DNA of 64,000 bases from a virus (Duplodnaviria > Caudoviricetes): IMG/VR virus record IMGVR_UViG_2932675082_000001, positions 13,620-77,619 of that record, one strand, 5' to 3'. The notes below the pieces were generated by a model. The model did not search any database, was not told where the DNA came from, and saw only the letters and a list, made by a program, of their open reading frames with translations. This document shows, piece after piece, positions 15,981 to 16,348 of this stretch. Within the stretch, counting starts at the first letter, position 1. Each line of letters opens with the position of its first letter. The position numbers were made by a program, and so were the translations under genes.

Positions 15981-16116
15981 TGCCCGAGATCGAGGGCGGA
16001 TACGGCGACAAGGCGTCCTGGGCCGCTAGACGACACCAGCCGCATGGCTGGCGGCGGGATTCGAACCCGCGTCTCCCTCTTGACAGGAGAAGTAGCCGTG
16101 TCCTGCGCACCGGGCA
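15981..16116 (-). ncRNA. YrlA-like Y RNA, permuted tRNA mimic with Asp(GUC)-like loop
   Basis: Paired ends UGCCCG/CGGGCA; T arm GCGGG-UUCGAAU-CCCGC; closed acceptor hairpin; D arm GUCUAGCGGCCCAGGAC; adjacent to rsr. Confidence 0.85.
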
Positions 16117-16130
16117 TCCCGGATGCTGTG

Positions 16131-16200
16131 CCTCCCGAGATCAATGCGGACGGCGGCGTGATTCACCAAAGAAGTAGCCGCATTCCAGCGCACCGGGAGG
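16131..16200 (-). ncRNA. Minimal Y RNA (terminal stem only, no tRNA domain)
   Basis: CCUCCCG/CGGGAGG ends; shares GGUGCGC, GGCUACUUC and UYGAUCUC motifs with both neighbours. Confidence 0.75.
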
Positions 16201-16215
16201 TGCATGAAGTTGTGT

Positions 16216-16348
16216 GCCCAGAGATCGAGTTCGGCTGAGGGAACGTAGGCGCTCTGCCAACTGAGCTACACCGACGAGTCGGTGACGGGACTCGAACCCG
16301 CGACAACCCCATTACCAATGGAAGTAGCCTCGGCCTGCGCACCTGGGC
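16216..16348 (-). ncRNA. YrlA-like Y RNA, permuted tRNA mimic with Thr(GGU)-like loop
   Basis: GCCCAG/CUGGGC ends; T arm GCGGG-UUCGAGU-CCCGU; 7-bp acceptor CACCGAC-UC-GUCGGUG; D arm GCUC-AGUUGGCA-GAGC. Confidence 0.88.

Follow-up and report, generated by a model that had tools for sequence, protein, structure and literature searches.

The window, a 64,000-nt stretch of a 77.6-kb virus record (G+C 69.7%), encodes a large terminase, a portal protein and a major head protein, and therefore comes from a tailed phage or prophage. It also carries rsr, a minus-strand gene (14253-15953) recognized by a domain match as encoding a Ro60-like protein with a TROVE domain. Its nearest counterparts, at 96% and 93% identity, come from two Kitasatospora genomes; many Streptomycetaceae genomes and IMG/VR contigs encode proteins at 50-70% identity. 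The best explanation of the source is a temperate tailed phage of Kitasatospora/Streptomyces, and of the RNAs beside rsr, Y RNAs of the YrlA class. A megablast search of the locus against the phage collection gave no match, and no mycobacteriophage Ro gene was among the best 60 of the 71 phage records.

Three tandem Y RNAs precede rsr, arranged head to tail on the minus strand (16347-16217, 16200-16131 and 16115-15982), and the array ends 28 nt upstream of the TROVE reading frame; Y RNA modules adjoin a Ro60/TROVE gene in the same layout in 85 of 106 related regions. Common to all three units are a terminal stem, CCNGGUGCGCAGG ... GAUCUCNGG, which covaries among relatives (helix 1 of alignment A2, described below), and a GGNUACUUC motif. 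Units 1 and 3 are YrlA-like and carry a permuted tRNA module. Between them sits unit 2, absent from an earlier sequence-only reading of this DNA, which is short, YrlB-like and cargo-less, with the common terminal stem and the GGCUACUUC motif but no tRNA module. The program cmscan places GGCUACUUC on the part of the model for the 5' GNCGAAN0-1G motif, for which Rsr binding has been proposed (Chen 2014; PMC4201824), although there is no literal match. The spacers between the units (16206-16216 and 16116-16130; ACAACUUCAUGCAC and CACAGCAUCGGGG-like) are near-invariant across relatives and present in most loci; one possibility is that a polycistronic Y RNA precursor is processed at them.

A terminator-like hairpin followed by a U run (15963-15946, minus strand; one found, 0.3 expected) lies between the array and rsr and, judged by eye, is kept in relatives; attenuation between the Y RNAs and rsr is a possible role for it. 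The hairpin and U run (15936-15963) overlap the listed GTG start of rsr, and the true start may be a TTG a few codons downstream.

Unit 1 (16347-16217) comprises the terminal stem, a second stem (stem 2) and the permuted module. Read 5' to 3', the module begins with the hairpin UUCCA-UUGGUAA-UGGGG (16323-16307; loop 16318-16312, triplet GGU), followed by a 5-nt variable loop, UUGUC (16306-16302), a GGUUCGA-type T arm (16301-16285), a closed hairpin capping the acceptor (16284-16269), the dinucleotide UA and the D arm GCUCAGUUGGCAGAGC (16266-16251). After the D arm come N26 (G) and positions 27-28 (CC; together 16250-16248), the latter pairing with positions 43-42 (16307-16308). Unit 3 (16115-15982), with triplet GUC on a tRNA-Glu-like body, repeats this order on the same strand: the hairpin UUCUC-CUGUCAA-GAGGG (16091-16075; loop 16086-16080), a 4-nt variable loop, AGAC, a T arm of the same type (16070-16054), the capped acceptor hairpin (16053-16034), UC, the D arm GUCUAGCGGCCCAGGAC (16031-16015), N26 at 16014 and CC at positions 27-28 (16013-16012). 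Both hairpins are exactly as the sequence-only reading described them, and the permuted order that it proposed, with T arm, closed acceptor hairpin and D arm, is borne out in both units.

Relation to YrlA RNAs and to tRNA genes

In a permissive search, units 1 and 3 matched the Rfam YrlA family (RF02553) at 45.3 and 22.1 bits, where the gathering score is 69; at the gathering threshold Rfam gave no match in the window. The canonical tRNA family (RF00005) likewise gave no match in the window, and the acceptor of these modules is a closed hairpin without free ends. The single ARAGORN call in the window, a tRNA-Ser(act) at 16276-16358 (minus strand), takes the hairpin as a long extra arm. We regard this call as a mis-parse. 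Two tRNA genes annotated in phages, the tRNA-Arg(tct) of VanLee, a Gordonia phage (L107:1204-1275), and the tRNA-Arg(cct) of GiJojo, a Streptomyces phage (L106:1269-1343), have no Rfam tRNA match and overlap YrlA-like modules, and they look like pieces of Y RNA mis-called as tRNA genes; in both phages the annotation software took the hairpin as the anticodon arm. In practical terms, tRNA-finding software mis-annotates such modules as tRNA genes in phage records.

YrlA RNAs (RF02553; S. Typhimurium YrlA, 6CU1; those of M. smegmatis and mycobacteriophage) likewise adjoin rsr and occur in phages, and they share with units 1 and 3 the T arm, closed acceptor hairpin and D arm in identical permuted order, together with the covariation of N15 and N48. 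In the paper on its structure, Salmonella YrlA is described as an RNA that 'lacks the anticodon loop' (bioRxiv 10.1101/312249). The sequence-only reading had taken this to be true of the described YrlA RNAs at large; it holds for the Salmonella RNA, but many YrlA RNAs have a fourth stem-loop upstream of the T arm. What distinguishes the RNAs analyzed here, apart from scores below gathering, is that this stem-loop is a regular anticodon-arm mimic of 5 bp and 7 nt with a stem made from two strands. Nor can we uphold the suggestion of an undescribed system: YrlA RNAs in phages are known, as are the additional stem-loop and the idea of a decoy. A limited literature search found no described anticodon loop in YrlA, and within the limits of that search three elements appear to be new: that the stem-loop is identified as a regular anticodon stem-loop, that its stem is composite and the Y stem enters it at 28/29, and that a conserved frame surrounds a variable triplet.

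Outside the YrlA group, Yrn1 of D. radiodurans resembles tRNA in some features and may have an 'anticodon arm', whose stem is 5 bp long (PMC4201824, section 6). It differs in having a 6-nt loop, an arm placed between the T and D arms, no V arm and a doubtful D arm, and its authors consider it to have evolved independently (PMC4201824).

Architecture of the anticodon-like arm

We parsed 106 upstream regions, from the window, 28 IMG/VR loci, 75 bacterial genome loci and two phage records. The 85 regions with T-arm/acceptor/D-arm modules hold 105 of them, 97 with an ACUUC-type motif and 92 distinct. A hairpin with a 7-nt loop, by which we mean a loop closed by at least three inner pairs (29-31 with 39-41), is kept in 75 of the 92 distinct modules, and its stem covaries; the claim that the hairpin exceeds chance is thereby sustained. 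Both RNA ends could be defined in 72 of these 75 units, five modules without recognizable ends having been left out along with duplicates. A MAFFT alignment of all 72 (A1) was discarded, as the gap between 4-nt and 5-nt variable loops fell inside the hairpin, and the two classes were aligned apart. Alignment A2 holds 45 of the 48 units with a 5-nt variable loop, the other three having badly parsed 5' ends. Alignment A3 holds the 24 units with a 4-nt variable loop, unit 3 included; some of its 'other' cells stem from alignment errors, at position 28 in three rows and within the D arm in one.

Among the 75 hairpin units, the dinucleotide just 3' of N26, on the strand leaving the D arm, covaries with positions 42 and 43. 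Pair 28-42 is CG in 46 units, UA in 22, GC in five and AU in one, with one mismatch; pair 27-43 is CG in 69, GC in two and UA in one, with three mismatches; and no wobble occurs in pairs 30-40 (CG 44, UA 21, GC 9, AU 1) and 31-39 (AU 44, CG 27, UA 2, GC 2), where the percentage paired at 29-31/39-41 is partly circular, the class having been selected on these positions, while the presence of all four Watson-Crick types is not, and where, as throughout, the counts overstate independent events because the sequences are related. In A2 a pair-counting tool found the 2-bp junction helix (27-43, 28-42) to be 100% paired, with two-sided changes in both pairs. The A2 structure as a whole is 97.7% paired compared with 80.2% in shuffles, and its covariation is 0.437 compared with 0.113, a level reached by none of 500 shuffles; the figures for A3 are similar. 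Stem 2 (e.g. GGAUAC with GUCUCC) is 92-98% paired and also covaries. RNAalifold run on A2 left the hairpin region unpaired, and folds of the single sequences did not exceed shuffles in stability (z = 0.13 and -1.53). For unit 3, the minimum-energy structure adopts a shifted 6-bp register that finds no support in relatives.

The covariation favors one composite 5-bp stem rather than two states. Sequence comparison shows a stem with two sources: the nucleotides downstream of the D arm supply pairs 27-43 and 28-42, whereas the conserved C of the UACUUC motif and two more 5' nucleotides supply 29-41, 30-40 and 31-39, and the whole closes a normal 7-nt loop of Y32, U33, triplet, A37 and A38. In unit 1, this model has only 16321-16319 of the 5' hairpin strand paired, with 16311-16309. 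Read most simply, the result is a three-way junction in which 27-28/42-43 stack on 29-31/39-41 along the continuous 39-43 strand, giving a normal 5-bp anticodon stem. The tRNA chain is opened partway along that stem, on its 5' side between positions 28 and 29, and stem 2 exits there towards the Ro60-binding terminal stem.

A hairpin formed entirely by its own 5' strand, in which the invariant 5' UU pairs with 42-43, is compatible with most A2 units (a1-43: UG 43, UA 1, other 1; a2-42: UG 36, UA 6, other 3). The UU can form only U-G or U-A pairs there, however, and fails where 42 or 43 is C or U; in A2 this arrangement shows one-sided changes only, with four unpaired cells. In A3 it fits about as well as the composite stem, but two-sided changes are found only in the latter.

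The sequence-only reading had instead proposed a switch, in which the stem's 3' side has two alternative partners, the 5' side of the hairpin and the strand following the D arm, with Ro60 selecting the state. Both strands are able to pair with 42-43 in most units, and UGGGG can pair with CCUUG at all five positions if wobbles are counted. Among the relatives, however, the strand after the D arm pairs consistently with 42-43 only: at positions 29, 30 and 31 it can pair in 64, 38 and 38 of the 75 units, and at 29 mostly by a U-G wobble where the 5' C gives C-G. The two partial helices thus behave as complementary parts of one stem, not as competitors. Because one composite stem explains all of the pairing data, the switch is not needed, and we think it improbable.

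Twelve 'open' modules, out of 17 that lack the hairpin (15 by another count), have no closed loop, and in these the strand 3' of the D arm gives 4-5 stem pairs, as in the classical YrlA drawing. Loop-like heptamers (CAGUUAA, UUGUUAA, UUUCUAA, AUGGGAA) still precede position 39. On the same reading, the chain in this class is opened between 31 and 32 rather than at 28/29. One phage BRock unit seems, judged by eye, to be opened between 27 and 28 instead.

If the hairpin is to represent an anticodon arm, it must occupy the right place in the tRNA fold. In the published model the hairpin is a 'V' stem-loop and stem 2 is the equivalent of the anticodon stem, so that the RNA has no anticodon loop; section 6 of PMC4201824 orients YrlA in this manner, and the ARAGORN call noted above uses an identical parse. 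The nucleotides that follow the hairpin argue for a different assignment. The 4-5 unpaired nucleotides end in N48, which covaries with N15 (GC 55, AU 17), the pair being kept in all 72 units, and they are therefore a class-I variable loop. The hairpin then corresponds to tRNA positions 27-43, not to the variable arm as modeled in 2014. Moreover, the published orientation would leave N26-28 and the linker as a long bulge, yet 27-28 covary with 42-43, and annotation software itself arrived at the anticodon-arm reading in phages VanLee and GiJojo. For the RNAs analyzed here we consider a variable arm to be quite unlikely.

The loop itself is consistent with the anticodon-arm assignment. It is always 7 nt long, with U33 in 72 of 72 units, C (68) or U (4) at position 32, A38 in 70 of 72 and A37 in 62 of 72, the other occupants of position 37 including a pyrimidine in five. 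Positions 34-36 have entropies of 1.1-1.65 bits, and none of positions 32, 33 and 38 exceeds 0.31 bits. When 130 pairs of units with near-identical scaffolds were compared, differences fell at positions 35 (64), 36 (43), 34 (15), 37 (13) and 32 (4), and never at 33 or 38; more than 20 kinds of triplet occur in the homologs. G37 is found only with G36, in five of five units, as it is in 14 of 14 cases among the 58 distinct tRNAs of a related host genome. The arm thus combines the features of an anticodon stem-loop: a 5-bp stem, a 7-nt loop, Y32, U33, a position 37 that is mostly purine, and a 4-5-nt variable loop leading into the T stem. The original proposal of an anticodon-like loop at correct tRNA spacing therefore stands. 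A comparison of loop heptamers with host tRNA loops was not used; roughly estimated, matches only weakly outnumber those due to chance when the shared CU..AA frame is discounted.

When the modules were re-ordered by script into tRNA order, ARAGORN called all 72 as tRNAs, with the hairpin triplet as the anticodon, at a mean score of 123.6 compared with 120.6 for 75 genuine host tRNAs. Shuffling the anticodon arm lowered the mean to 106.8, with 61 of 72 still called, so that detection alone does not discriminate and we rely on the scores. The data favor placing the hairpin at the anticodon position in this lineage, and on this assignment units 1 and 3 each hold a complete, circularly permuted tRNA, anticodon stem-loop included. 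The pattern of change suggests that the loop frame is under selection, with the triplet either drifting freely or diversifying.

Several relatives of the array depart from this plan. In the closest one (L030, 1160-1240; Rsr 96% identical), the flanks and terminal stem of unit 1 are kept and a short hairpin replaces the tRNA module; a DNA contig of sequencing run X2 has the same 35-nt replacement, which points to cassette-like gain and loss of the module. Another locus (L042:1010-1480) holds a four-unit array with one full module (GGU), one short unit and two units seemingly reduced to the T arm and a long (acceptor) hairpin. A weak hint of expression comes from two studies whose RNA libraries yielded short contigs (94-421 nt) matching relatives of the array at 85-95% likeness; such contigs may contain DNA and show neither ends nor strand. 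Array relatives account for small shares of most of the sequencing runs in which they occur.

Triplet identity and possible functions

The sequence-only reading had called for a check of whether the loops vary among real anticodons while matching the identity of the D arm. The loops do vary, but identity is matched only in part. In unit 3, which carries an Asp triplet (GUC), the D arm, 4-nt variable loop and T arm are nearest to host tRNA-Glu(UUC) (40, next best 29), and its positional homolog in another locus (L018) has the Glu triplet CUC. Unit 1 (GGU) is nearest to host tRNA-Thr(CGU) (37, then His at 36), and all four units with Thr triplets (GGU twice, UGU and CGU) are nearest to a Thr tRNA; three GUU units are nearest to Asn and one UGG unit to Pro. 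Host tRNA-Thr(CGU) is, however, the nearest body for about half of the units whatever their triplet, and GCU (Ser) triplets are carried on class-I bodies. Body and triplet agree in approximately nine of 72 units, by a test that used one host genome and is dominated by Thr(CGU) as a generic body, and we therefore draw no strong conclusion about identity from it. The constant stem CC+CCA with UGGGG carries 11 different loops. Together with the mixed bodies, this implies modules drawn from several tRNA types, with the triplet then changing in place, and a strict match of body and anticodon does not appear to be maintained.

In a Kitasatospora genome (L115; G001:C4:322050-322450), three atypical tRNA genes are clustered: Pro(tgg), whose T loop is aberrant, Trp(cca), and Gly(gcc), which combines a D arm of Glu type with the loop CUGCCCG. 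They may be part of a mobile element.

How might such a module be used? We lean towards a functional mimic of the anticodon arm that engages a partner. The Y RNA would tether Ro60 to, or compete for, a factor that reads the whole tRNA shape including the anticodon arm, the candidates being an anticodon nuclease, a synthetase, or an enzyme of tRNA modification or repair, and the capped acceptor would keep the Y RNA out of translation. A role as decoy or competitor against factors that read the anticodon arm is plausible. Section 17 of Hughes et al. (2020; PMC7790460) raises the possibility that YrlA's tRNA-like domain competitively inhibits an anticodon nuclease, and the same article reports that Salmonella YrlA was not cut by the anticodon nuclease studied. 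A closed anticodon loop would make the competitive-inhibitor idea more concrete in this lineage, though it is no proof. A stronger version, which we regard as doubtful, casts actinophage Y RNAs as tRNA decoys that are tethered to Ro60, cannot be charged and bear an exchangeable 'address'. The frame of the loop would be held, and the triplet, or at times the entire module, would be exchanged to suit the host tRNA being attacked or read by an anticodon-directed defense nuclease, toxin or modification enzyme.

The surroundings of Ro genes in lytic actinophages are in keeping with the favored reading. The Ro gene lies among tRNA genes in GiJojo, BRock and Atuin and upstream of tRNA genes in Neville, where a nucleotidyltransferase gene (L150:1-495) is located about 0.9 kb upstream of it; in Kela an RNA ligase gene (L149:738-1490) is directly upstream of the Ro gene. 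The Kela ligase and the Neville nucleotidyltransferase fit an RNA-repair setting. Sub-threshold YrlA matches are present in all seven phage loci examined. The BRock locus also has a sub-threshold match to the manA RNA (L148:3579-3742; 49.7 compared with 55.2 bits), between tRNA genes and downstream of the Ro gene.

The best surviving alternative to a mimic that engages a partner, although we judge it unlikely, is a structural relic, in which tRNA-derived modules keep the arm for a stable, nuclease-resistant fold, the triplet is neutral and the loop is not read. Protection by a stable tRNA fold is among the possibilities considered by Chen et al. (2014; PMC4201824, section 10). Triplets that change on constant stems, as on the stem with 11 loops, body and triplet identities that are often at odds, and the 12 modules without a closed loop are all in keeping with a relic. 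The dominant triplets (GUU, GCU, GUC and GCC) differ by transitions only, and the preference for G34 (54 of 72) and for pyrimidines at 35-36 could reflect shared descent plus transitions, not selection. A purely structural hairpin, however, need not keep an invariant U33, a nearly invariant A38, a 7-nt loop and G37 exactly with G36, and loop-like heptamers precede position 39 even in units whose stem is open.

Permuted tRNA genes such as those of Cyanidioschyzon merolae, in which the 3' half precedes the 5' half and the two are joined at the acceptor ends, are processed to real tRNAs. In the units described here, by contrast, hairpins of variable length close off the acceptor, and a Ro60-binding stem sits at the opening. 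That these units are themselves cut, joined and matured into working tRNAs is scarcely credible: the order of the halves is similar, re-ordered modules score as tRNA-like and M. smegmatis YrlA is cut by RNase P and given CCA (PMC4201824, section 10), but the acceptor hairpins have uninterrupted stems of 8-10 bp in 42 of 72 units and total lengths of 14-31 nt, the break lies inside a stem, the units have Y RNA terminal stems in common and adjoin rsr, and no splicing endonuclease was found among those of the window's genes that were examined.

As L-shaped mimics of tRNA, the Y RNAs may be compared with tmRNA, viral tRNA-like structures (TLS) and mascRNA. In tmRNA and the TYMV TLS the CCA end is free, and both can be charged, in contrast to the Y RNAs described here, which have no free CCA end. 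For mascRNA, binding to GlnRS through the anticodon loop has been reported (PMC10424219).

The current picture of YrlA rests on the Salmonella RNA, which has no anticodon loop. In a large actinobacterial and actinophage branch, our analysis suggests that the module is a complete tRNA in which the frame of the anticodon loop is conserved and the triplet changes fast, and YrlA-class partner RNAs of Ro60 would then mimic more of the tRNA than the solved example suggested. A complete module narrows the search for a partner in this branch to factors that read the anticodon arm, and the loop frame, the triplet and the capped acceptor offer handles on the published idea of competitive inhibition of an anticodon nuclease. 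If the reading as decoys with an exchangeable address is true, the Y RNA array would be a counter-defense cassette in an arms race.
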